64,000 nt of DNA from Candidatus Eiseniibacteriota bacterium (lineage in GTDB: Bacteria; Eisenbacteria; RBG-16-71-46; CAIMUX01; VGJL01). This document shows, one piece after another, positions 25,795-38,649 of this stretch; position 1 is the stretch's first letter, and the number at the start of each line of letters is the position of its first letter. A program made the translations under genes and the position numbers. The notes beneath the pieces were generated by a model that made no database searches, was not told the origin of the DNA, and worked only from the letters and a program-made list of their open reading frames with translations. The DNA is taken from the NCBI GenBank assembly GCA_041946735.1, contig JBHGAY010000015.1:16170-80169 (forward strand), written 5' to 3'.

Positions 25795-26113
25795 GACGGG
25801 CTGCCGGGCCGCCGCTCGGATATGCCCGTCTGACCTTCCGCCCGAACCGCCGCTGCACTGATCGCGCCGTCGATTCGAGGAGTGCCGGCCGCACCCTCCT
25901 CCCCGCGCCTTGCGGCGTCTCTCCCTCCTCCCTGCGCTTCCGACGTCTCTTCCTCATCCGTGTCCCGAATCCGTCCACCGCACATCCGCCGGACGTTCGT
26001 CCCCCAAGCTCGCGAAAGTGATAGAATTCACCGAACGCAAACGCACCCGAGGCCGCTCCGCATCCGGCCTCCTGCGCACCTGCGAGCTTCCACCCTCAGC
26101 CGGGAGGTTCTCG

Positions 26114-29100
26114 ATGCCGCGAGCGGTCGGCCGCCTACTTGCCCTGTTCTGCTTTCTCCTGTTTTCCCTGATGCTTGCGCCCCGCGCGGGGGCGGTGCTG
26201 GCGACGCCGGAAGAGATGGAGGCGGTCGCCCGCAACTGGATGGCCCTCACCGTCCAGCAGGCCGGAGACTGGGGGGGATCGGAGCGGCCGGAGATCGCTG
26301 GCATGCGGGAGATCCGCTCGGGAGGACGTCTTCTCGGGCGCGTGTACTCCATCAGTCCCACCGGTCACATCGCCGTCCCGGTGCTGAAGGAGTTGCCGCC
26401 GGTGAAGTGTTACTCCGAGAAGTACGACCTCGATCCGGGGGAGCCCGACGGCTTCCCGCGCCTGCTCCGCGAGGCCCTCGGCTCGATGCTCGATCTGTAC
26501 GAGGCGACCTACGGAAGCTTGGACGCGAGCCAGCCGTCTGGAACGGAGACGCTCCTGGGGGAGGAGCACCGCCAGCAGTGGGATGGCCTGTTGCTCGCCC
26601 AGCCGGTCTTCCAGCGGGACCTCGAGGGCGGGCGCTTCCAGCCGCTCCTGGACTACGGTCCGCTCCTGTCCACCGAATGGCACCAGAGCTTTCCGTACAA
26701 CCTCCTCTGCCCGCAAGGGGACGGCGGGCAGTGCGTCGTCGGTTGCGTCGCGACCGCCGCCGCGCAGGTCCTCCGGTACTATCAGTGGCCGCCGATCGGC
26801 CTCGGCGAATCCCAGTACTACTGGGAGGGAGACGACTCGTGCGGCGGCGGCTCGCAGGGCGACTGGCTCTACGCGGACTTCTCCGACCCGTTCGACTGGC
26901 AGAACATGCCGGCAGACTGCGACGGCGGCTGCACGCAGCAGCAGCGCGCGGCGCTCTCGGAGCTCTGCTACGAGGTCGGCGTGGCGTTCCAGATGGACTA
27001 CGGGGTTTGTGGCTCCGGCGCGTATACGAGCGAGGCGATCACCGTCCTGCCCCAATACTTCCGCTACGACGACACGATCACCGAGGAGCGCCGCAACAGC
27101 TACTCGGCGTCCGGATGGTCTCAGATGATCCGGGACGAAGTAGCGGCCGGGCGTCCGATGCTCTACGCATTCCGCTTTAGCGCGAACGAGGGGCACGCGG
27201 TGGTCTGCGACGGATGGCGGCTTTCCGGAGGCGAGGAGCAGTACCACATCAACTACGGCTGGGGCGGGTCGTTCAGCGCCTGGTACGCGATCGATCACCT
27301 CTACCATACCGACGATCCCATGCAGGAGGTTCTGTATCGCGGGATCCGTCCGTCGCCGGGGATGCGCTTCACGGTAGCGCCGGACGGCGGCGGGGATTAC
27401 GCGACGATCCAGGCCGCGATCGACGTCTCGCTCGACGGCGACACGATCGAGCTGCTCGACGGCCTCTACAGGGGCGACGGCAACCGCGATCTCGTCTTCG
27501 GCGGTCGCGAGATCACTGTTCGCTCGCGCAGCGATCATCCGGAGGATTGCACGATCGACTGCGAGGGGAATCCCGGCGCCCACCGGGCCTTCCTTTTCAC
27601 CTCCGGCGAGACGGCGGAGGCGCGCATCCGCGGTGTCACCATCACCGGCGGCTACCCGGGGATCGGGCAGAGCGGCGGCGCGATCCTCTGCTCCAACGGG
27701 GCCTCTCCCGTGATCGAGAACTGCGTCTTCGAGGGCAACGAGGTCGCGAGCGGGGCGGGCGGCGGAGCGATCGCGTGCGCGGGAGCGGGCGCGAGCCCCC
27801 GCCTGGTCTCGTGCACCTTCCGCGGGAATCAAGCGCAGGGACCGCTCGGAGACGGGGGCGCCGTGGCCGCCAGCGGGGCGGGAAGCGCTCCGCTCCTCGA
27901 TCGCTGCGTCCTGGTCAGGAACACGGCCGGCAGGCGCGGCGGCGGAATCTCCGCCTCCTCCGGGGCGCATCCCATCGTCACCGGCTGCACGTTTCATGCG
28001 AACGGCGCTGCATCTGCACAGGGGGCGGCCGTCTGGGTGGGAGCTTCGTCAGCCGTCGACCTGGAACGATCGATCCTCGGTTTCGGCGCTTCAGGCGGCG
28101 CCGTCGCGTGCGAAGGGGCGGGTGCCAATCCGAGCCTCTCCTGCTGCGACGTCTATGGCAACGCGGGAGGGGATTGGGTCGGATGCATCGCGGGGCAGTC
28201 GGGAATGGCTGGGAACCTCTGCGCCGATCCGCTCTACTGCGGGATCGAGCAGGAGAACCTGCGCCTGACGGCGGAATCCCCGTGTGCGGAGGAGAACAAC
28301 CCCGAATGCGGTGGCATCGGGGCGATGCCGGCGGGGTGCGGCCTCGTCATCGTCCTGGCTGACGGCACCGGCGACTATCCCACCATTCAGGCGGCGATGG
28401 ACGCAGCGGAGGCCGGATTCGTGGTGGAGCTGGGCGACGGCGTCTATCGGGGACCGGGCAACCGCGACCTCGATTTCCGCGGCAAGACGCTGATCGTCCG
28501 CTCGCGCAGCGGCGATCCGGATTCGTGCGTGATCGACTGCCAAGGGACCGCGGCCGAGAACCATCGGGGTTTCGAGTTCCATTCGGGCGAGGGATCGAAC
28601 GCCATGGTTTCCGGCCTCACGATCCGCAACGGATACATGTCCACGTACAGCGGCGGCGGCATCTCGTGCACGAACTCCTCGAACCCGACGATCGAAGCCT
28701 GCAACCTGTACGACAACCGCTCGGACGTGGGCGGGGGCGGCCTCTTCTGTTTCCAGTCGCGCCCCACCATCCGGGACTGTACGTTCGCCGGCAACACGGG
28801 GGGGAGCGGCGGAGGCGCGTACCTGAACAGCGGGAGCCAGCCGATCCGGCTCGACCGGTGCACCTTCTCCGGAAATGCCGCCACTGCATTTGGCGGAGCG
28901 GTGTTCTGCTACTACGCCGACCTCGTCGCGGAGAACTGCATCTTCGCATTCAGTTCCCAGGGCAGCGCCTTCTACTGCTTCTACAGCTCGGTCGATCTGC
29001 GGTGCTGCGACGTGTTCGGCAACGTGGGCGGGGACTACGCGGCATGCATCGCCGGCGAATCGGGTGCGGATCACAACCTGTCGGTCGACCCCCAGTTCTG

Positions 29101-29521
29101 CGACCGAGCCGGATACGACTTCGGCCTGATGCCCGGCTCTCCGTGCAACGACGCGGTCTGCGGCCGCATCGGGGCCTGGCCTGTGGGGTGCGGAGTCATG
29201 GACGTGGAGGAAGGGGCGGCAGGACTGTCAGGACCGCCGCTCGATATCGCGGCCCCCGCGCCGAACCCGTTCGCGAGCGTCGCGAGGATTCCTTGCGCCT
29301 TCCGCTCCGCGGAGGCGGGTCGCGTCACGTTACGGATCTTCGACGCGAGCGGGCGTAGCGTCCGCCAGCTGATCGACGAAGTCCGGCCGGCGGGACGGTG
29401 GATCGCCGAGTGGGACGGTCGCAACGACGCCGGGGACAGGCTCGCCGCGGGCGTCTATCTCGCGCGCCTCGAGGCGCCGGGCGCGGAGGGGCGATCCGTC
29501 CGCATCGTCCTGCTGAAGTGA
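26114..29521 (+). CDS. Multidomain secreted C10-family cysteine peptidase (streptopain-like): two parallel beta-helix repeat modules and a C-terminal FlgD-Ig/T9SS-type sorting domain
   Basis: The RBS GGGAGG lies 6 nt before the ATG at 26114, followed by a signal peptide. The C10 catalytic Cys context VGCVATAAAQVLRYYQWP and His context NEGHAVVCDGW are present. Two roughly 300-aa beta-helix modules each begin DGxGDYxTIQAA. The C-terminus is WDGRNDAGDRLAAGVYLARL. Confidence 0.8.
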   Translation: MPRAVGRLLALFCFLLFSLMLAPRAGAVLATPEEMEAVARNWMALTVQQAGDWGGSERPEIAGMREIRSGGRLLGRVYSISPTGHIAVPVLKELPPVKCYSEKYDLDPGEPDGFPRLLREALGSMLDLYEATYGSLDASQPSGTETLLGEEHRQQWDGLLLAQPVFQRDLEGGRFQPLLDYGPLLSTEWHQSFPYNLLCPQGDGGQCVVGCVATAAAQVLRYYQWPPIGLGESQYYWEGDDSCGGGSQGDWLYADFSDPFDWQNMPADCDGGCTQQQRAALSELCYEVGVAFQMDYGVCGSGAYTSEAITVLPQYFRYDDTITEERRNSYSASGWSQMIRDEVAAGRPMLYAFRFSANEGHAVVCDGWRLSGGEEQYHINYGWGGSFSAWYAIDHLYHTDDPMQEVLYRGIRPSPGMRFTVAPDGGGDYATIQAAIDVSLDGDTIELLDGLYRGDGNRDLVFGGREITVRSRSDHPEDCTIDCEGNPGAHRAFLFTSGETAEARIRGVTITGGYPGIGQSGGAILCSNGASPVIENCVFEGNEVASGAGGGAIACAGAGASPRLVSCTFRGNQAQGPLGDGGAVAASGAGSAPLLDRCVLVRNTAGRRGGGISASSGAHPIVTGCTFHANGAASAQGAAVWVGASSAVDLERSILGFGASGGAVACEGAGANPSLSCCDVYGNAGGDWVGCIAGQSGMAGNLCADPLYCGIEQENLRLTAESPCAEENNPECGGIGAMPAGCGLVIVLADGTGDYPTIQAAMDAAEAGFVVELGDGVYRGPGNRDLDFRGKTLIVRSRSGDPDSCVIDCQGTAAENHRGFEFHSGEGSNAMVSGLTIRNGYMSTYSGGGISCTNSSNPTIEACNLYDNRSDVGGGGLFCFQSRPTIRDCTFAGNTGGSGGGAYLNSGSQPIRLDRCTFSGNAATAFGGAVFCYYADLVAENCIFAFSSQGSAFYCFYSSVDLRCCDVFGNVGGDYAACIAGESGADHNLSVDPQFCDRAGYDFGLMPGSPCNDAVCGRIGAWPVGCGVMDVEEGAAGLSGPPLDIAAPAPNPFASVARIPCAFRSAEAGRVTLRIFDASGRSVRQLIDEVRPAGRWIAEWDGRNDAGDRLAAGVYLARLEAPGAEGRSVRIVLLK

Positions 29522-29623: not shown

Positions 29624-30025
29624 CTACAGCTGGCTCGTGCAGGACCGGCACTTCTTGGCGCCGGCGGGGATGACGTCCATGCAGTAGGGGCACTCCTTCG
29701 TGGGTGGACCCGGAGGAGGCGGAGCAGGCTTCAGGAACGTCCTCGTGATCTGGAAAACCACAAACCCGATGATCAGCAGATCGATCACGTTTCCGAGGAA
29801 CGACCCGACCATGAGGGCGTTCTTTGCCGTTCCGTCCGGGTTGTGGCTGAGCGTGATCGCCCAGGTCCGCCATCCGCCACCGGGTAGGATCAGGCCGATC
29901 ACCGGCATGAGAAGATCGCCGACGATCGAAGTCACGACCTTCCCGACGGCGGCGCCGATGATCACGCCGATGGCGAGCGCGAGGGCGTTCGACTTGAAGA
30001 GGAACGCCTGAAACTCCTTCCACAT
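29624..30025 (-). CDS. mscL: Large-conductance mechanosensitive channel MscL with a C-terminal Cys4 (zinc-ribbon-like) tail
   Basis: The start MWKEFQAFLFKSNALALAIGVIIGAAVGKVV matches MscL TM1. GGGAGGTGG is the RBS. The tail reads PPPPGPPTKECPYCMDVIPAGAKKCRSCTSQL. Confidence 0.85.
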   Translation of the reverse strand: MWKEFQAFLFKSNALALAIGVIIGAAVGKVVTSIVGDLLMPVIGLILPGGGWRTWAITLSHNPDGTAKNALMVGSFLGNVIDLLIIGFVVFQITRTFLKPAPPPPGPPTKECPYCMDVIPAGAKKCRSCTSQL

Positions 30026-30609
30026 AGTCCACCTCCCAAACGTTCGACCCATCGCGACAGTCAGACGGGACGCACCGTTCATACGCCCAGCCCGGAAGCC
30101 TGGCAAGCGTTCGTTTGGCGCCGGTCTCGGCCTGCGCTCGAGGAGGAGCGGGCTGGAGGGGGAACGCGGCCGCGGGCGAGCCGCCGGCCACGTGAGACGC
30201 GGCGACCGACAACACGCCCCAGCCTGGCGCGACGGCCGGGCCGGCTATCAGCCAGAAGGAGGGATCGAGATCGTTTCGTCCGCGGGCCGGGCCTGCGGAG
30301 CACGATCCAGGGGCGCCGCGACAGGAAGGGCGCAGCCATGTGAGGACGGCGCAGAAAGCGCCCCGCCACGTGCCGACTCCCTCGACGCTTTGTTCGGATT
30401 GACTCCGTTTCGCCGTATGTGAGACGTTTTCTCCAACGGGGCATGCACGATCGTTCGTGAATGATAAAGGTGATGGCAGAATGTTGGACCGAAGAATGGA
30501 TCGTGGGTCCCGTTCGGCTCTTCGCTGCCATCGCGCGGGGATTGATGCGCAAGTGATGCATTCCCCTCGACCGGTTCCGGCCGGCCTCGCAGGAGGAAGG
30601 AGTGATCCC

Positions 30610-31056
30610 GTGAAGCGCTTCTGGCCCAGCCTGATTCTCGCCATCATCCTGCCGGTTCTCGGTTGCGGCGGCGGAAACCGCGGCGATGAGAACGCGTCTG
30701 CGACGGAGCGCGGAACGACGGCCGATACGACGGCGGTCAACGACACGAACCGGGTCTACACCCAGGACGAGATGACCGCGTACAGGACGCAGGTGACGCA
30801 AGACCTCCAGAATATGAATCAGCAGCTGACGCAGATGCGATCCCGCATGGCGAACATGACGTCCTCGGCGCAAGCCGACATGCAGCAGCAGCTCGACCGA
30901 ATCCAAACGGAGCGCCAGACGATTCAGGCCCGCGTGGACTCGTTGGAGACGGCCACCGGGACGCAGTGGACAAGGATCCGGATCCGGGTCGACCAGGACC
31001 TGAAGAACCTGCGCGCGGATCTCGAGGACGCGGGCGACAAGCTGCAATCGCAATAG
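30610..31056 (+). CDS. Hypothetical lipoprotein with a Gln-rich coiled-coil domain
   Basis: GTG start with AGGAGGAAGG upstream. The signal ends in the lipobox LGCGG. It is followed by Q/M/T-rich heptads. It sits just upstream of EncFtn. Confidence 0.55.
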   Translation: MKRFWPSLILAIILPVLGCGGGNRGDENASATERGTTADTTAVNDTNRVYTQDEMTAYRTQVTQDLQNMNQQLTQMRSRMANMTSSAQADMQQQLDRIQTERQTIQARVDSLETATGTQWTRIRIRVDQDLKNLRADLEDAGDKLQSQ

Positions 31057-31184
31057 CCGGCCGGCGGGAAGTGGCGGCCGCCCAGTGCCTCGCAGAAAGG
31101 AATTCGGCCGATCCCGGTGCGGCGCGCCGGTCCTCGCCGGCACCTCGCCCGGGATCGAGCCCAAGGCCTGACAGTGGAGGGTCG

Positions 31185-31598
31185 ATGGAGGGGTATCACG
31201 AGCCGTACGAGATCCTCGGTCCCGAGACGAGCGATCTCCACCGGGCATTGACAAGCCTGAAAGAGGAGATCGAGGCGATCGACTGGTACCACCAGCGGGT
31301 CGTCGCCGCGCATGACCCCGCCCTCCGGGACGTCCTTACCCACAATCGGGACGAGGAGATCGAGCACGCGACGATGGTGCTCGAGTGGCTCCGGCGCAAC
31401 ATGCCCGGATGGGACCGAGCTCTTCGCGCCTATCTGTTCCGGGAGGAGCCAATCACCGAGATCGAGGAGGAGGACAAGGCAGGTGGGGAGCGCCGTGAGG
31501 CCGATCTCACATCGCCGGCCCCCTCCCAGGGATCGGTCCGGCATGGACGGCAGCCGATCCCCGACCTTGGAATCGGCAAGCTCCAAGAGGAGGCGTGA
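31185..31598 (+). CDS. Encapsulated ferritin-like protein (EncFtn), the encapsulin cargo
   Basis: EEIEAIDWYHQRVVAAHDPALRDVLTHNRDEEIEHATMVLEWLRR matches the EncFtn ferroxidase-centre motifs. The C-terminal IPDLGIGKLQEEA matches the encapsulin cargo-loading peptide consensus xLxIGxL. Confidence 0.85.
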   Translation: MEGYHEPYEILGPETSDLHRALTSLKEEIEAIDWYHQRVVAAHDPALRDVLTHNRDEEIEHATMVLEWLRRNMPGWDRALRAYLFREEPITEIEEEDKAGGERREADLTSPAPSQGSVRHGRQPIPDLGIGKLQEEA

Positions 31599-32402
31599 GT
31601 GGACATTCTCAAGCGGGCTCTCGCTCCCATCACCGACCTCGCCTGGACCGAAATCGAAGCGGTCACTGCGAGCGCGCTTCGTACGCACATGATCGGCCGC
31701 CGGATCGTCGACGTCAGCGGACCCCACGGGTGGGACTTCGCCGCGATCGGTCTCGGCCGCCTGGACGTCGACCGGCAAAGCCTCGACGAGGTCTATTTCG
31801 GCGTCCATCAGGTGCAGCCGCTGGTCGAAGTACGTGTTCCCTTTTCGCTCGGGATCTGGGAGCTGGACAACGTGACGCGCGGCGCCGCCGACGTCGATCT
31901 GACGGCTGCGATCGACGCGGCGAAGCGGATCGCCGACTTCGAGGACGGCGCGATCTTCAACGGCTTCGAGAAGGCGAAGATCCAGGGTCTGCTTCACGCC
32001 TCTCCGCATCCCGCGATTGCCGTTCGACCGGACTCGGGGTCGCTCCTGGAGGGCGTTTCGAAGGCGCTCCTGGCGCTTCTCGACGCCGCGGTGCAAGGCC
32101 CCTACGTCCTCGTCCTCGGCCCGCGCCTCTTTCAGACGCTCGCCAACACTGCCTCCGGCTATCCGTTGCGCAAGCAGGTGGAGCAGCTCCTCGAAGGGAA
32201 AGCCATCTACCGGTCCGTGATCGAGGGAGGCGCGCTCGTCTCGAAGCGCGGGGGAGATCTGGAGCTCACGATCGGGCAGGACATCTCCCTCGGATATGAA
32301 TCACACGACACCAAACAGGTCCGCCTCTACCTGACCGAATCGTTCACGTTCCGGATTCTCGACCCTTCGGTCGCCGTACCGCTCACGCTCGCTTCCTCGT
32401 AG
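31599..32402 (+). CDS. Family 1 encapsulin nanocompartment shell protein (HK97 fold, linocin M18-like)
   Basis: GTG start 1 nt after the EncFtn stop, with AAGAGGAGG 5 nt upstream. MDILKRALAPITDLAWTEIE is the canonical encapsulin N-terminus. 267 aa. Confidence 0.85.
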   Translation: MDILKRALAPITDLAWTEIEAVTASALRTHMIGRRIVDVSGPHGWDFAAIGLGRLDVDRQSLDEVYFGVHQVQPLVEVRVPFSLGIWELDNVTRGAADVDLTAAIDAAKRIADFEDGAIFNGFEKAKIQGLLHASPHPAIAVRPDSGSLLEGVSKALLALLDAAVQGPYVLVLGPRLFQTLANTASGYPLRKQVEQLLEGKAIYRSVIEGGALVSKRGGDLELTIGQDISLGYESHDTKQVRLYLTESFTFRILDPSVAVPLTLASS

Positions 32403-32813
32403 CCGGCGTTCCCGTCCGGCCTCCAAAGAGGTCTCCGCCGCAGCGGATACCTTTCCTCTCGCGCCTCCCGGCGGCGCGGGCACTGCTTGCGCGAGCGGCA
32501 GCCCCCCATTCCCCGGGCGCTCGCGCAACGGTTGAATGCGCCGACATTCGGGCGACGAACTTGCCAGTGTGCGACACCACGTAAAGGCGAGCGAGCTTCG
32601 TAATAGCCGGGATTACATGAGATCGCATAGACCGATTCATGTACGTTTTCGTCATCTTGAAACACGAAAGGGCCGTCAGGTTGCGATCTGCTGTTGCCGG
32701 GCGCGATTTGAACCTCGACAATGAGGAAAGAAGGACCGGGTTTCCCTCGCAGATAGGCCGCGACGGCCTAGGCCGATGCGATTGGCCGATCGACCTATTC
32801 CCAGGAGGAAGAC

Positions 32814-32963
32814 ATGCTGTGGACAATCTTCGTGATCTTGCTGGTTCTCTGGCTGCTCGGGATGGTGAGCTCCTATACCCTCGGCGGCTTCATCCATATC
32901 TTGCTCGTGCTTGCGATCGTCGTTCTCCTGATCCGGGTGATCTCAGGTCGAAGGGTCGTGTAG
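32814..32963 (+). CDS. Small hydrophobic membrane protein, 49 aa (lmo0937-family-like), missing from the ORF track
   Basis: MLWTIFVILLVLWLLGMVSSYTLGGFIHILLVLAIVVLLIRVISGRRVV. A perfect AGGAGG lies 5 nt before the ATG. It is preceded by a roughly 300-bp lower-GC leader. Confidence 0.65.
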   Translation: MLWTIFVILLVLWLLGMVSSYTLGGFIHILLVLAIVVLLIRVISGRRVV

Positions 32964-33289
32964 CGGCTCGTCATCGGCTTCGATGATCCGCTTGGTGGCC
33001 GCCTTGCGGACGCGAACGCCAGGAGATCGGCCGGAGTGGCGAGCGCCCTCCGGTCGATCGGCGTCTCCCTGCACGTCCTTTCTCCCCGCACGCCCTTTCT
33101 CTCTGCACGACCCTTTCTTCTCGCGCGGCTCTCCCCGCACGACGGTTCCTCCCCGCGCGACCATTTCTTATCTGAGCGCCGCGAAGCCCCTCCGGGCGCC
33201 GGCGGGCCGGCCATCCCGTCCTCGGGAGGGAGTCCGCATCCGCCCGGTGGCGCGCCTTCGTGCTGTAGAATCGACCTGGGAGGTTTCCG

Positions 33290-33787
33290 ATGGAGTTCGT
33301 GCCGTCTCGAGCGCAAGCGCACCTCGTCGTCGCCGCTGTCCGTGTGCTCAGCCATACGAAGAAACGCCCTCCGACCGCCGAGGAAATGTCCGAGCTTCTC
33401 GGGATCGGACGGGAGGTCATCCTGCATCTCGCCCGGGGTCTGGAGGCGAAGCAGATCCTTCGCGCCATCCAGAACCCGTTCGAGCTGCGATGGGATCTCG
33501 AAGATCCCAGCCGCATCGACGAGCTTCCGATGGCCGCCTCGGGACCGGACATGGGACGCGAAATCGAGGACTTCCACCGGCGGGCCGAGGACCGGCAGAA
33601 GAAAATCGAGCGAATGATGCGGGACACGGACCCGGAGAGGTCCTCGCGCGAGAAGGCGCAGAAGATCGAGGAGGAGTTCCGGCGTTTTCGCTCGGATCGA
33701 AGCAAGCGCTCGATCTTCGGTCCCGCGGGCGGGAGCGACGGCCGGCCGGAGGAGAATGCGGAGGAGGAAGGGAAGGACCGGGAGTGA
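33290..33787 (+). CDS. Hypothetical charged protein, 165 aa
   Basis: GGAGG RBS. Coding-like codon usage with lower GC and a highly charged C-terminal half. No family recognised. Confidence 0.5.
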   Translation: MEFVPSRAQAHLVVAAVRVLSHTKKRPPTAEEMSELLGIGREVILHLARGLEAKQILRAIQNPFELRWDLEDPSRIDELPMAASGPDMGREIEDFHRRAEDRQKKIERMMRDTDPERSSREKAQKIEEEFRRFRSDRSKRSIFGPAGGSDGRPEENAEEEGKDRE

Positions 33788-33845: not shown

Positions 33846-35219
33846 TCAGGCTCTTCCCGCCGCGGCTCGCTCCTTCCTCTTTCTGTACGTTCGCGCCAGC
33901 TCGAAGAAGATGCCGAGGTCGCGCTCCAGGTGCGACTGCGTGCCGTCGAAATAGAAGATCCGGATCGGGATGCCGTCGTGGTCGCGGCTGATCTTCGGAT
34001 AGACCGCCTCGCTCACGATCCCATTCATGCAGCTGAACGGGCTGATGTCGACGATGCCGTCGCACCCCTTCGACCAGAAGTAGACCGCCTTCCCGGCGGA
34101 GATCACCATCTCCCCGTACACACCCGATGCGGGGAGATACGGTTCGGCGAGATCCGTGACGATCTTCATCCTCTCCGGTTCCTCGCGCCCCTCGAAGAGC
34201 GCGTGGAACGGGGCTGCCAGCGCGTGTTCGTCACTCCGCTGGAACGCCTCCTTCACGTACGCGCCCAGCATCCGTAACGAAAATGTCTGCCCTGCGTAGC
34301 GGATCCATTTTCTCCGCTGCTCGAGATTCGTGTAGTAGATCCACTCGCTGATGTCCGAGATCCAGGCTTCGCCTCCCTGCGCCTCGATCTTGCGGACCAT
34401 CTCCTCGTTGCTGAAGGTGTTCATCCGGCAGAAGATCTCGCCCACCACGCCGATCCGCAGCCGGTCCTCGGATCGTCGCGGGACCGACTCGAACGCGGCG
34501 GCCGCCTCGTCCATTGCCGACCGGAGCTTCGCGAGCGTCTCGCCCGCCGTCGCCCCACGTGTCTCGAGGATCGCGCAGACCGCGTCGATCGACCGGTCGT
34601 AGAGCCGGTCGGTCGTTCCCGCCTCGATCTCGTACGGTCGCACCCGCAACGTCGCCTTGCGGAGCAGGTCGGCGGCGACGAGGGCGCGCCACGACGCGCG
34701 CTGGACCGCCCGCGAGTCCATCCCCATCAGGTCATAGCCGCTGCCGCTCGTCGGGCTCACGATCGCCACGCTCTCTGCCCCGACCGAATCGAGCACACGG
34801 CGGAGGAACGGAGCGTACTGGCCGAAGCGGCACGGCCCCGGAGCGGTCGGCATGAAGAAGGCGAGCCGCTCCTTGGGGATCGGGCCGTCCTGCACGATCC
34901 GCAGGATGTCTCCGAGAGTGGCGCGCTCAGGGAAGCACTCCTCCCCGGACGTGTGGCGCCCGCCGAGTTCGATGGTCCGGCTGTCGGACGGCGGGATCGG
35001 TCGAGCATCGACACCGGCGCCGCGAATCGCCGCGGCGACGCAGGTCGCGGCGGAGCCGCTCATCCGGGGGATGAAGAGAACGCGCTCGGCGATCGGAACG
35101 CCACCCGGCGCGCGATCGTTTCGCGGCCGGACCGCGGCAGGGCGAGCGCGATCCGGATCGGCCGGCTCGCCGGCGGCTTCCGCCCTCGCGCCCTCGGGGA
35201 TGCGCGTCGTATCGCTCAC
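33846..35219 (-). CDS. Putative 2-hydroxyacyl-CoA dehydratase-family (HgdB/DUF-like, Cys-rich) protein, partner of the upstream activase
   Basis: GTG start with AAAGGAG 11 nt upstream, just after the activase stop. Conserved Cys sites CFPER, PGPCRFGQY, GEIFCRMN and SPFSCMNGI appear. The N-terminal portion of the 574-aa track ORF is low-complexity and is rejected. Confidence 0.5.
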   Translation of the reverse strand: MSDTTRIPEGARAEAAGEPADPDRARPAAVRPRNDRAPGGVPIAERVLFIPRMSGSAATCVAAAIRGAGVDARPIPPSDSRTIELGGRHTSGEECFPERATLGDILRIVQDGPIPKERLAFFMPTAPGPCRFGQYAPFLRRVLDSVGAESVAIVSPTSGSGYDLMGMDSRAVQRASWRALVAADLLRKATLRVRPYEIEAGTTDRLYDRSIDAVCAILETRGATAGETLAKLRSAMDEAAAAFESVPRRSEDRLRIGVVGEIFCRMNTFSNEEMVRKIEAQGGEAWISDISEWIYYTNLEQRRKWIRYAGQTFSLRMLGAYVKEAFQRSDEHALAAPFHALFEGREEPERMKIVTDLAEPYLPASGVYGEMVISAGKAVYFWSKGCDGIVDISPFSCMNGIVSEAVYPKISRDHDGIPIRIFYFDGTQSHLERDLGIFFELARTYRKRKERAAAGRA

Positions 35220-35242
35220 AGGGAAGGAAGCTCCTTTCGTCC

Positions 35243-38200
35243 TCACCGCGACGGACCGCCCGCCTCGACCGACCCCGATCGCGACACCGACCCGGATCGC
35301 GTAGCCGCCCCCGGTGATCGGGAGGCGCCGAGCAGTGCTGCGGCCTCCTCGACGACCGCCGAAGCGCCGCCGCGACGCTCTTCGCCTCCGCCTGCCGCCG
35401 CCGCGGCGGCCGCCCCGCTCCATCGCCGCAGCATCCCCTGGCTGTCCAGGTAGGCCTCGACGCGCGTCAGCATGCCTGCGTCGTTCGCGTGGCCGTCGAA
35501 CTGCAGGGTCAGGAAGGCGCGCCCGAAGGCGTCGCGGACGAAATGCTTGATGTAGGAGTCGGGGCCGCACTTGAAGTTCGTAATGTAAATGAGGTGGAGG
35601 CGCTCGCGGCGCGAGGCGACGATCGCCGCCGCGAGGATCTTCCTTCCATAGGCCCAGTACATGTTCGCATTGACCGCCTCGATGTCGGCGTCGCCGGAGG
35701 CGAGGAACTCGAGCGGCACCACGTTCGCCCCGTAGAGATCGCGGAGCTTGCGCGGCACGTCGAGGTTCACGACGGGGTCGAAGAGGTTGTACGGGCGGCC
35801 GGCCAGAAGGACGGCCGGCTCTCCGCTCGCATCCAGCTCCCGCATCGCCGTCTCGCCCGCCTCTCGAATCCTCCTCCGAAAGAGGGCGAGAGCCTCCTCA
35901 CCCGCGGCCAGGCCCCGCTTCACGGCCCCCTTCCGCACTCCATAGCGCCGGAGGGAATCGTGCAGCGGATCGACCAGCGCCCGCGGGCCGGCCTGGATGC
36001 GGAGTAGCGGGTGGACGATCCGTTTGGCCTGCGCCTCGAACCCGGCCGCCGCGCGCACGACGTAGGGGATCGTCATCCCCCAAGGACAGCAGAAGCTTTC
36101 GATCTCGTCGTGCGTCCGCTCTGTGTTGATCAGGTTCGGCAGGAAGACGAAGTCGGTCTCGGGCATTTCGAGCGCGAGCCGGACGTGGCCGTGGGCGACC
36201 TGGATCGGGAAGCAAGGCTCGGCGACCGCCGCCTCCACTCCATCGTGCGCGATCGATCGGTTCGTCTCCGGCGTCAGGCGGACCCCGAAGCCGGTCTCGC
36301 GCAGGAAGGCGTTCCAGAACGGAAACCGGTCGAAGAAGTAGAGGGAGCGCGGGAAGGCGACCGTGCCGCGTGGGCCGCTACCCGGCTCGTACCCCTCGAG
36401 GAGCCACTCCTTTCGCAACCGCACGAGATCGTCGATGACCGGCTCGTACTGGACCCGCGCCCGGCGCCTGTAGCGATCGCCGCACTGGTCGCCCCAGAAC
36501 GTCTTCTCTCCCTCGACCCGGAACTCCTGCATGTCGCAGCGGTTCTCGCACCCCTGGCACGTGAACTCCCGGATCCGGTAGTCGACGGTGCCGAGGTCCC
36601 ATCCACGGAACCGCGATGGCGCTCCGGAATCCGCGTTCGCCTTCTCCCAGGCGAGCAGGGCCGCGCCCACGGCTCCGACGACTCCGTTGTAGGGAGGGAC
36701 GATGATCTCCCGGTCGAGAATCTGCGCAAAAGCCGCTGCGACGGCGTCGTTGTAGGCCGTCCCCCCTTGGAAGAAGATCACGCCGTCGATCTTGCGGCCG
36801 CGCACGACGCGGTTGATGTAGTTCGTCGCGACCGAGAGAGCGAGTCCGGCCAGCAGATCCTCGGTCGACGCGCCACGCTGCTGGTAGGCGTTGACGTCCC
36901 GTTCCATGAAGACCGTGCAGCGTTCGCCGAGGCGCACGGGGGAGGTCGACGCGAGCGCCCGGCTCGCGAACTCCCCCTTGATGCAGACTCCCAGCTCCTC
37001 CGCCCGCTCCTCGAGGAACGACCCGGTGCCGGCCGCGCACGCTTCGTTCATCGCGAAGTCGACGACGATCCCGTCCTCGATGCGGATGTACTTCGCGTCC
37101 TGCCCGCCGATCTCGAAGATCGTATGGACCGGTGAGCCGAGCATCGTCCGCGCGATGAAGCTCGCGCCGGTCTTGTGAGCGGTGATCTCGTCGTTCACGG
37201 TGTCGGCGCCGACCAGCTCACCGATCAGCTCGCGACCCGAGCCGGTCGTCCCGACGGCCCGCACGGCGATCCGTTTTCCCAGCTCGCCGCGCAGCTCCGC
37301 GAGCGCCGCGGTGACGACCTCGATCGGCCGTCCCTGCGTGCGCGTGTAGATCTCGCGCACGATCTGGCCTTCGCGCGTCAGAAGAACCACGTTCGTGCTG
37401 ACCGACCCGATGTCGATTCCGAGAGCGACCTCGACCGGAGAGCCGTTCCCACTCGACGGCATCTCGTAAGGGAGCACGCGGTCCCGAAGCGCGATGACCT
37501 TGCCGAGGTCGAGCGGGCGGGCGCGCGGCATCGTGTCCGAGCCGAGGGACGCCTCCGACACTCGCTCCAGATCGAGAGGATGGTGCACGGCGTCGCTCGC
37601 TTCGAGGATTGCGCATCCGATCGCGGCATGCGCCGCGTGATGCTCCGGGACGATCAGGTCTTCGTCGAGATCGAAAACGTCGCGCAGCGCGCGCACCACC
37701 ATCCCATTGGCCGCGACCCCGCCGACGAGTAGAACCGGCGGCCGCGGGGTCCGTCCTTTCACTACGGCGGCTCGGAAGTTGCGCGCGACGGTTTCACAAA
37801 GTCCCCGGAGCACCTCCGGGGGCGAGTAGCCTTTCTGCTGCGCGTGGATCATGTCGCTCTTCGCGAAAACGGAGCAGCGCCCGGCGATCTTGGCGGCCCG
37901 CTCGCTCGCGAGCGCGATCGCGCCCAGCTCCTCGACCTCGTAGCGCAGTCGCCCTGCCTGCTGATCGAGGAACGAGCCGGTTCCGGCAGCGCAGTCTCCG
38001 TTGGTTGCGTAATCGGCGATCCCCAGCTCGCCCGATCCTGGGTCCCGCTCGAAGAAGAGCGCCTTCGAGGACTCCCCGCCGATTTCGAAGAGCGTCCGCA
38101 CCTCGGGTGCCAGGGCGCGCGTCGCCGCCGCGAGGCAGCGGAAGTCGTTCTCTTCCGGGATTCCGAAGCGCTCGCGAAGCAGGCGGGCTCCCGAGCCGGT

Positions 38201-38467
38201 CACACGGACCCCGTCGAACGCGCGGCCGCCGGCGCTCTCCCGTATCCGCTCCACGAGGAGCCGGGCGGCCTCGAGCGGACGTCCGTGGGTGCGCCGGTAG
38301 GTGGTGACGCGGAGAGATGCCGGCCCTCCGCCGGGAAGCTCGATATCGAGGAGGTCGGGGGACCAGAGATCCCCCGACGGCTCCTCGCGACGCTCCCGAT
38401 CCTCGCCGATCTTCAGCAGGGCGGCCTTGATGCTGACCGCGCCGATGTCGAGTCCCAAGTACAGCAA
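35243..38467 (-). CDS. CoA-substrate-specific enzyme activase: two tandem BadF/BadG/BcrA/BcrD-type ATPase domains plus a C-terminal DUF2229 domain
   Basis: Two ASKHA ATPase modules, each with LGIDIGxxS...EIGGxxxK...ACAAGTGSF motifs, are followed by about 470 aa of DUF2229 (CPWG, NFKCGPDS). A TTG start is proposed at 38467 with AGGAG 8 nt upstream. The first 45 aa of the track ORF are rejected. Confidence 0.75.
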   Translation of the reverse strand: MLYLGLDIGAVSIKAALLKIGEDRERREEPSGDLWSPDLLDIELPGGGPASLRVTTYRRTHGRPLEAARLLVERIRESAGGRAFDGVRVTGSGARLLRERFGIPEENDFRCLAAATRALAPEVRTLFEIGGESSKALFFERDPGSGELGIADYATNGDCAAGTGSFLDQQAGRLRYEVEELGAIALASERAAKIAGRCSVFAKSDMIHAQQKGYSPPEVLRGLCETVARNFRAAVVKGRTPRPPVLLVGGVAANGMVVRALRDVFDLDEDLIVPEHHAAHAAIGCAILEASDAVHHPLDLERVSEASLGSDTMPRARPLDLGKVIALRDRVLPYEMPSSGNGSPVEVALGIDIGSVSTNVVLLTREGQIVREIYTRTQGRPIEVVTAALAELRGELGKRIAVRAVGTTGSGRELIGELVGADTVNDEITAHKTGASFIARTMLGSPVHTIFEIGGQDAKYIRIEDGIVVDFAMNEACAAGTGSFLEERAEELGVCIKGEFASRALASTSPVRLGERCTVFMERDVNAYQQRGASTEDLLAGLALSVATNYINRVVRGRKIDGVIFFQGGTAYNDAVAAAFAQILDREIIVPPYNGVVGAVGAALLAWEKANADSGAPSRFRGWDLGTVDYRIREFTCQGCENRCDMQEFRVEGEKTFWGDQCGDRYRRRARVQYEPVIDDLVRLRKEWLLEGYEPGSGPRGTVAFPRSLYFFDRFPFWNAFLRETGFGVRLTPETNRSIAHDGVEAAVAEPCFPIQVAHGHVRLALEMPETDFVFLPNLINTERTHDEIESFCCPWGMTIPYVVRAAAGFEAQAKRIVHPLLRIQAGPRALVDPLHDSLRRYGVRKGAVKRGLAAGEEALALFRRRIREAGETAMRELDASGEPAVLLAGRPYNLFDPVVNLDVPRKLRDLYGANVVPLEFLASGDADIEAVNANMYWAYGRKILAAAIVASRRERLHLIYITNFKCGPDSYIKHFVRDAFGRAFLTLQFDGHANDAGMLTRVEAYLDSQGMLRRWSGAAAAAAAGGGEERRGGASAVVEEAAALLGASRSPGAATRSGSVSRSGSVEAGGPSR

Positions 38468-38649
38468 GAGAGGCGCTCCTGAACGGTCTCCCTGCCGCGC
38501 AGGTCGAGACCCGGCCGGTCCATACGAACGAGGGCGGCCAACCGGGGCTGAGAATACGTTCGGCCTGATGCGTTGGCAAGGACGCCCGACCGGTCGCCGC
38601 ATCGCAGCTCCATGCCCGCCGATGCCCGCCGGCGGGCCGTGTCAGGCCC

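Follow-up and report, generated by a model that had tools for sequence, protein, structure and literature searches.

Does the stretch between positions 30610 and 32963 of a contig from a Candidatus Eiseniibacteriota bacterium encode a genuine iron-storage nanocompartment, and which of the genes found there belong to it? The DNA analysed, hereafter the window, comprises 64,000 nucleotides (assembly GCA_041946735.1, contig JBHGAY010000015.1, positions 16,170 to 80,169 of the forward strand). A first-pass annotation had described in this region an operon for an encapsulated ferritin (EncFtn) and a family-1 encapsulin, possibly extended by a lipoprotein gene upstream and a gene for a 49-aa protein downstream. 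All four open reading frames (ORFs) were found at the positions that it gave. The G+C contents of their third codon positions (GC3, 0.80-0.87) are typical of coding sequences in this genome of 65-70% GC. As their profile E-values range from 2e-12 for the lipoprotein to 1e-85, none of the four is a chance match. Our analyses indicate that the locus very probably represents a canonical family-1 encapsulin system for iron storage and iron detoxification, made of two translationally coupled genes.

The EncFtn gene (31185..31598, + strand) is preceded by a GGAGG Shine-Dalgarno sequence (31176..31180) placed 4 nt before its ATG, and codes for a protein of 137 aa, MEGYHEPYEILGPETSDLHRALTSLKEEIEAIDWYHQRVVAAHDPALRDVLTHNRDEEIEHATMVLEWLRRNMPGWDRALRAYLFREEPITEIEEEDKAGGERREADLTSPAPSQGSVRHGRQPIPDLGIGKLQEEA, which includes EEIEAIDWY and HNRDEEIEHATMVLEWLRR and ends with IPDLGIGKLQEEA. 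It consists of a ferritin-like domain (residues 4-87), a disordered linker of about 30 aa (approximately residues 96-125) and a C-terminal targeting peptide. The protein passed the cut-offs of both relevant profiles, PF22277 (Pfam EncFtn-like; 1e-39, 134.6 bits for a cut-off of 27) and TIGR04535 (encapsulin-associated ferritin-like protein; 1.1e-43, 147.9 bits for a cut-off of 125). Its top solved relative, which it matches over the full length, is the EncFtn of Haliangium ochraceum (7oe2, 2e-36), and structures of the Rhodospirillum rubrum EncFtn match it at 4e-30 to 6e-34. In an alignment with 35 homologues, residues E27, E28, E30, W34, Y35, E58 and H61 are invariant, and the ferroxidase residues comprise the ExxH motif E58-I-E-H61. 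The first-pass annotation had proposed an alignment with the R. rubrum protein as a check; the seven key residues match one-to-one those of R. rubrum (E31, E32, E34, W38, Y39, E62 and H65; PDB 5da5 and mutant structures), and we saw no functionally significant difference between the two proteins at the sequence level. For three of these residues, R. rubrum E32, E62 and H65, experiments have verified that they bind iron in the ferroxidase centre, in which Y39 also takes part (PMC11202242). The assignment of this gene as an EncFtn with an intact set of catalytic residues is thus borne out.

The C-terminal tail had been proposed to fit the consensus of cargo-loading peptides, and the alignment with homologue tails agrees. 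The peptide PDLGIGKL (residues 126-133, encoded at 31560..31583, + strand), followed by the four residues QEEA, aligns to the DLGIGSL block of the homologues, the sole conserved block in otherwise variable tails. A [LIVM]G[IVL][GRK] motif is present within the last 25 aa of 91 out of 120 EncFtn homologues. In the cryo-electron microscopy structure of the H. ochraceum complex, the peptide GSLGIGSLR is bound in a hydrophobic pocket of the P-domain, and the core of the tag was defined as GxLGIxxL (PMC8791618); this core has been seen bound to both the H. ochraceum and the Thermotoga maritima shells (PMC8791618). PDLGIGKL fits seven of its eight positions, and the tail combines tag and disordered linker in the manner of encapsulated ferritins, whose linkers measure 10-40 aa. 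A six-frame scan of the window for C-terminal LG[IVL][GR] motifs returned EncFtn as the only ORF in a credible coding frame. No second cargo was seen in that scan, the two other motif matches bearing no resemblance to the DLGIGSL block.

We also asked how such tails are distributed relative to shell genes, using as a control set the 80 best-scoring EncFtn loci, one per species. An encapsulin gene lies just downstream of the EncFtn gene, on the same strand, in 59 of these 80 loci from other species. A strict tag pattern together with a long tail was found in 51 of the 59, and the remaining eight mostly carry near-matches such as DLGIGKIK or SPGIGSLK. Conversely, no shell gene could be detected in the flanks of 21 loci, and 20 of these, mostly from Proteobacteria, code for tail-less proteins of 92-100 aa. 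Thus, tagged long tails and shell genes co-occur across loci, which supports a functional reading of the EncFtn tail in the window. This pattern, seen over 80 species, fits the known division between tagged proteins and short tail-less ferritin-like proteins, the s-FLP class (PMC11202242). The s-FLP of Nitrosomonas (NE0167, PDB 3k6c) shares the ferritin-like domain with the window protein (2e-28) but, like the proteins of those 20 loci, lacks the tag. In one locus of the set, from an Acidimicrobiaceae (L040), a tagged EncFtn of 122 aa was found with no shell gene detected by tblastn within 6 kb.

The gene following EncFtn (31599..32402, + strand, GTG start) codes for a family-1 encapsulin shell protein of 267 aa. 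Its Shine-Dalgarno sequence, GAGGAGG (31587..31593), lies within the last codons of EncFtn, 5 nt from the GTG. The EncFtn stop codon (TGA, 31596..31598) directly abuts the encapsulin start codon (31599..31601), with a spacer of 0 nt, which suggests translational coupling. This start is backed by homologues that begin with MDLLKR or MEFLKR, the window protein beginning with MDILKR. Over its full length the protein matches NF041155, the NCBIfam equivalog of family-1 encapsulins (8.4e-85, 284.3 bits for a cut-off of 100), and PF04454 (Pfam Linocin_M18; 2.6e-82, 276.3 bits for a cut-off of 24.3). Its alignment to the shell protein of H. ochraceum (PDB 7odw, 6.5e-68) spans the entire length; the T. 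maritima and mycobacterial shells match it at about 1e-57 to 1e-60. An AlphaFold model built with 40 homologues (mean predicted local distance difference test score of 93.4) has the HK97 fold, with residues 13-30 forming an N-terminal helix. A helix that replaces the phage N-arm at this end of the protein distinguishes family-1 encapsulins (PMC8346489), and a gene for a tagged cargo, EncFtn, lies 0 nt upstream. Profiles, model and ribosome-binding site thus agree with the description of an HK97-fold shell gene that has a strong ribosome-binding site and is placed right after the EncFtn stop codon. Absence of similarity to encapsulin or EncFtn profiles, which the first-pass annotation had named as grounds for abandoning its reading, is decisively contradicted by the strong matches to both.

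Prediction of the triangulation (T) number was another of the proposed checks, and T=1 is the outcome suggested by both sequence relatives and model superposition. Template modelling (TM) scores of the shell model reach 0.93-0.95 with T=1 encapsulins, at 37-44% identity, and its top 27 structural matches are all of this type. T=3 and T=4 shells match the sequence at just 1e-11 to 1e-16 (1e-11 to 1e-13 for those of Myxococcus xanthus and Q. thermotolerans) and superpose with TM scores of 0.75-0.82, at 21-25% identity. As both sequence and model are closest to T=1 encapsulins, the best prediction that homology affords is a 60-subunit T=1 shell.

By analogy with characterised homologues, the system would work as follows. 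EncFtn, which is 55-65% identical to characterised members, most likely forms ring-shaped (D5) decamers endowed with ferroxidase activity. Di-iron ferroxidase centres would be located at the EncFtn dimer interfaces, with E28, E58 and H61 as ligands together with Y35 (R. rubrum E32, E62, H65 and Y39). The flexible linker of about 30 residues is expected to bring PDLGIGKL to the lumen-facing side of the shell P-domain, where the peptide would dock in a hydrophobic cleft. Assembly of the T=1 particle, about 24 nm across and built from 60 shell subunits, would enclose the ferroxidase. Fe(II) would then enter through the shell pores and be oxidised by EncFtn, and the mineral would be deposited in the shell lumen, a storage of which EncFtn by itself would be incapable.

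Several observations weigh against this reading or limit it. Position 1 of the tag core is occupied by Pro rather than Gly, at a site that is also variable among homologues. Consensus boxes for Fur and IdeR/DtxR, allowing three mismatches at most, had no match in the window, and hence none upstream of EncFtn. Sequence does not suffice to prove a T number, as illustrated by the M. xanthus EncA protein, whose particles are T=1 or T=3 according to the cargo (PMC11202242). Lastly, expression, assembly and iron loading in this organism are predictions from its gene sequences.

The HK97 fold is common to encapsulins and phage capsids, and misannotation between them sometimes occurs (PMC8346489). We therefore considered that the shell gene might code for the major capsid protein of a phage or prophage, or for a remnant unable to assemble, next to a free-standing short Flp. 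Against this stand the 284 bits scored with the family-1 encapsulin equivalog, far above its cut-off, the N-terminal helix typical of family 1 and the T=1 encapsulins that make up all the best structural matches. The neighbouring genes code for MscL, a C10 peptidase and BcrAD-type ATPases, with no phage gene among them. Furthermore, the tail of the EncFtn is long and tagged, which sets it apart from the tail-less proteins of loci that lack a shell gene. Profile score, helix, neighbours and tail together effectively refute the capsid explanation, whose probability we regard as negligible.

The other matter to weigh is the extent of the unit. The lipoprotein gene (30610..31056, + strand, GTG start) codes for a protein of 148 aa with a signal peptide and a VLGC lipobox. 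Residues 56-145 match NF052504, the sll1863 family of stress response proteins (2e-12, 47.2 bits for a cut-off of 35). It had been described as Gln-rich and helical, fairly so, as Gln makes up 18% of the helical part; a model computed from the single sequence predicts three helices (residues 52-81, 87-112 and 117-147) forming a bundle behind a disordered tether. A search for relatives in an index of 5.8 billion proteins returned only the lipoprotein itself. Downstream, the gene for the 49-aa protein (32814..32963, + strand) is real, as had been proposed: it has a GGAGG 5 nt 5' of its ATG and a coding-type GC3, and its product is a member of lmo0937/DUF5670, a widespread family of small membrane proteins (PF18919, 4.5e-15, 55.9 bits for a cut-off of 23.5; NF033488, 2.1e-17, 62.9 bits for a cut-off of 30).

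The four genes might form a single operon in which the lipoprotein and the lmo0937-family protein are lineage-specific accessory components co-transcribed with the core, for example as a partner in envelope stress or iron handling. They share the + strand, strong ribosome-binding sites and similar GC3 values, and neither of the gaps around the core harbours a canonical intrinsic terminator in our scan, whose four terminator-like matches are within chance expectation (2.2 +/- 1.6). The gene order is also kept in one other contig that spans the four genes, while two more contigs end before the gene for the 49-aa protein. Nevertheless, the three contigs with this arrangement are near-identical and come from one population, and hence they are not independent evidence. 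The non-coding gaps measure 128 bp between the lipoprotein and EncFtn genes and 411 bp between the encapsulin gene and that of the 49-aa protein, as opposed to 0 bp within the core. Hairpins follow the stop codons of the lipoprotein (31058..31080) and encapsulin (32427..32454) genes, but they are only marginally more stable than shuffled sequences, with z-scores of about -2; the z-scores for folding of the gaps range from -1.6 to -2.1. A scan for sigma-70-like promoters found none in either gap. Rfam families were absent from the whole window when gathering thresholds were applied, and from 30000..33400 at E<=1, so no riboswitch or small RNA of that collection explains the gaps.

Comparative data are more telling. 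In 86 other EncFtn loci, tblastn detected no relative of either flanking protein at distances of up to about 6 kb from EncFtn, even when E-values as high as 10 were admitted. Four relatives, one of them a second Eisenbacteria operon, have different neighbours each time, and the EncFtn-encapsulin pair is the sole constant. Thus, neither flanking gene shows the conserved co-location expected of an accessory component, and neither of their products carries the targeting peptide. The suggestion that the two proteins share the EncFtn-encapsulin unit is therefore not upheld, and we consider a four-gene operon improbable. The lipoprotein and the 49-aa protein are most likely independent neighbours of the nanocompartment: their genes are real, and a functional tie is unsupported.

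Between the lipoprotein and EncFtn genes, in the 128-bp leader of 75% GC, a GC-rich hairpin some 56 nt long (31105..31160, + strand) is located just 5' of the EncFtn ribosome-binding site. It has no U-tract, and the whole-gap folding z-score is -2.1. Its sequence is unique in the window, and it is therefore not a repetitive extragenic palindromic (REP)-like repeat. One might imagine that this leader regulates the nanocompartment genes and that the sll1863-like lipoprotein is a co-regulated partner specific to this lineage, linking for instance envelope stress with iron sequestration, a scenario to which we give very little credence. Another hairpin, terminator-like and followed by TTTTCTCC, occurs at 30406..30426 (+ strand) in the 584-bp gap between the divergent MscL and lipoprotein genes; no gene of the + strand ends nearby, and such a match is within chance expectation.

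The two-gene nanocompartment finds its closest counterpart in the Enc:EncFtn system of H. ochraceum (PDB 7odw, 7oe2 and 5n5f; PMC8791618), the top solved match for both proteins. The shells share 44% identity, with a TM score of 0.93, and they are 266 aa and 267 aa long in H. ochraceum and the window, respectively. The two systems also have in common the gene order, the LGIG core of the tag and the T=1 type of shell, the latter predicted in the window. They differ by the Pro that replaces the first Gly of GxLGIxxL, by the acidic QEEA end in place of a basic tail and by a linker a few residues longer in the window. Their hosts differ as well, a myxobacterium in one case and in the other a Candidatus Eisenbacteria metagenome-assembled genome (MAG). 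The T. maritima encapsulin and its Flp cargo (PDB 3dkt and 7kq5) are a second close match, with a T=1 shell (2.7e-60, TM scores of 0.90-0.91) and a cargo tag, GGDLGIRKL (P0110), that shares the DLGIxKL core of the window peptide. Shell identity is about 40% in this case, and the T. maritima cargo stops with its tag, whereas four more residues follow the tag in the window.

Identical proteins are encoded in a Candidatus Eisenbacteria MAG, in GCA_030372885.1 and on a 130-kb contig. The next-nearest sequences are about 58-60% identical, a divergence that is ordinary for so large a family: at E<=1e-3, database searches gave 2,471 matches for EncFtn and 1,228 for the encapsulin. Systems with Flp-type cargo are on record from 23 bacterial phyla (PMC8346489). 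The proteins are already correctly named in the public record, as "encapsulin-associated ferritin-like protein" and "family 1 encapsulin nanocompartment shell protein" at NCBI, and this type of system is well established, as are its mechanism and sequence signatures. Specific profiles, solved homologues and this naming concur with the initial view of the locus as a clean example of a known system. Encapsulins and Eisenbacteria were not found together in the literature searched, which reflects a cataloguing gap rather than a biological oddity. The locus thus adds one clean pair of tagged EncFtn and T=1-type encapsulin in a poorly studied candidate phylum, and little beyond correct annotation.

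Other genes of the window deserve brief mention. The mechanosensitive channel MscL is encoded at 29624..30025 (- strand). The Pfam MscL match covers residues 1-100 only, and the last 30 residues or so (...KECPYCMDVIPAGAKKCRSCTSQL) form a zinc-ribbon-like tail with a CxxC-x10-CxxC pattern. A very large secreted protein is encoded at 25910..29521 (+ strand), with a streptopain-like Peptidase_C10 domain, three stretches of right-handed beta-helix and a C-terminal FlgD_ig domain; the gene caller's version of this protein has 1135 aa. Downstream of the nanocompartment, an ORF of 165 aa (33290..33787, + strand) has a good ribosome-binding site, a GC3 of 0.81 and a highly charged C-terminal half; no Pfam match was obtained for it, and no relative was present in the 86 fetched loci. 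Two further ORFs, at 33846..35570 and 35243..38602 (both - strand), overlap. Next to an ORF of up to 574 aa with no Pfam match lies that of a 1119-aa protein, whose two BcrAD_BadFG ATPase stretches and DUF2229 correspond to the pattern of CoA-enzyme activases. Given the overlap, the 574-aa ORF probably begins further downstream than listed.

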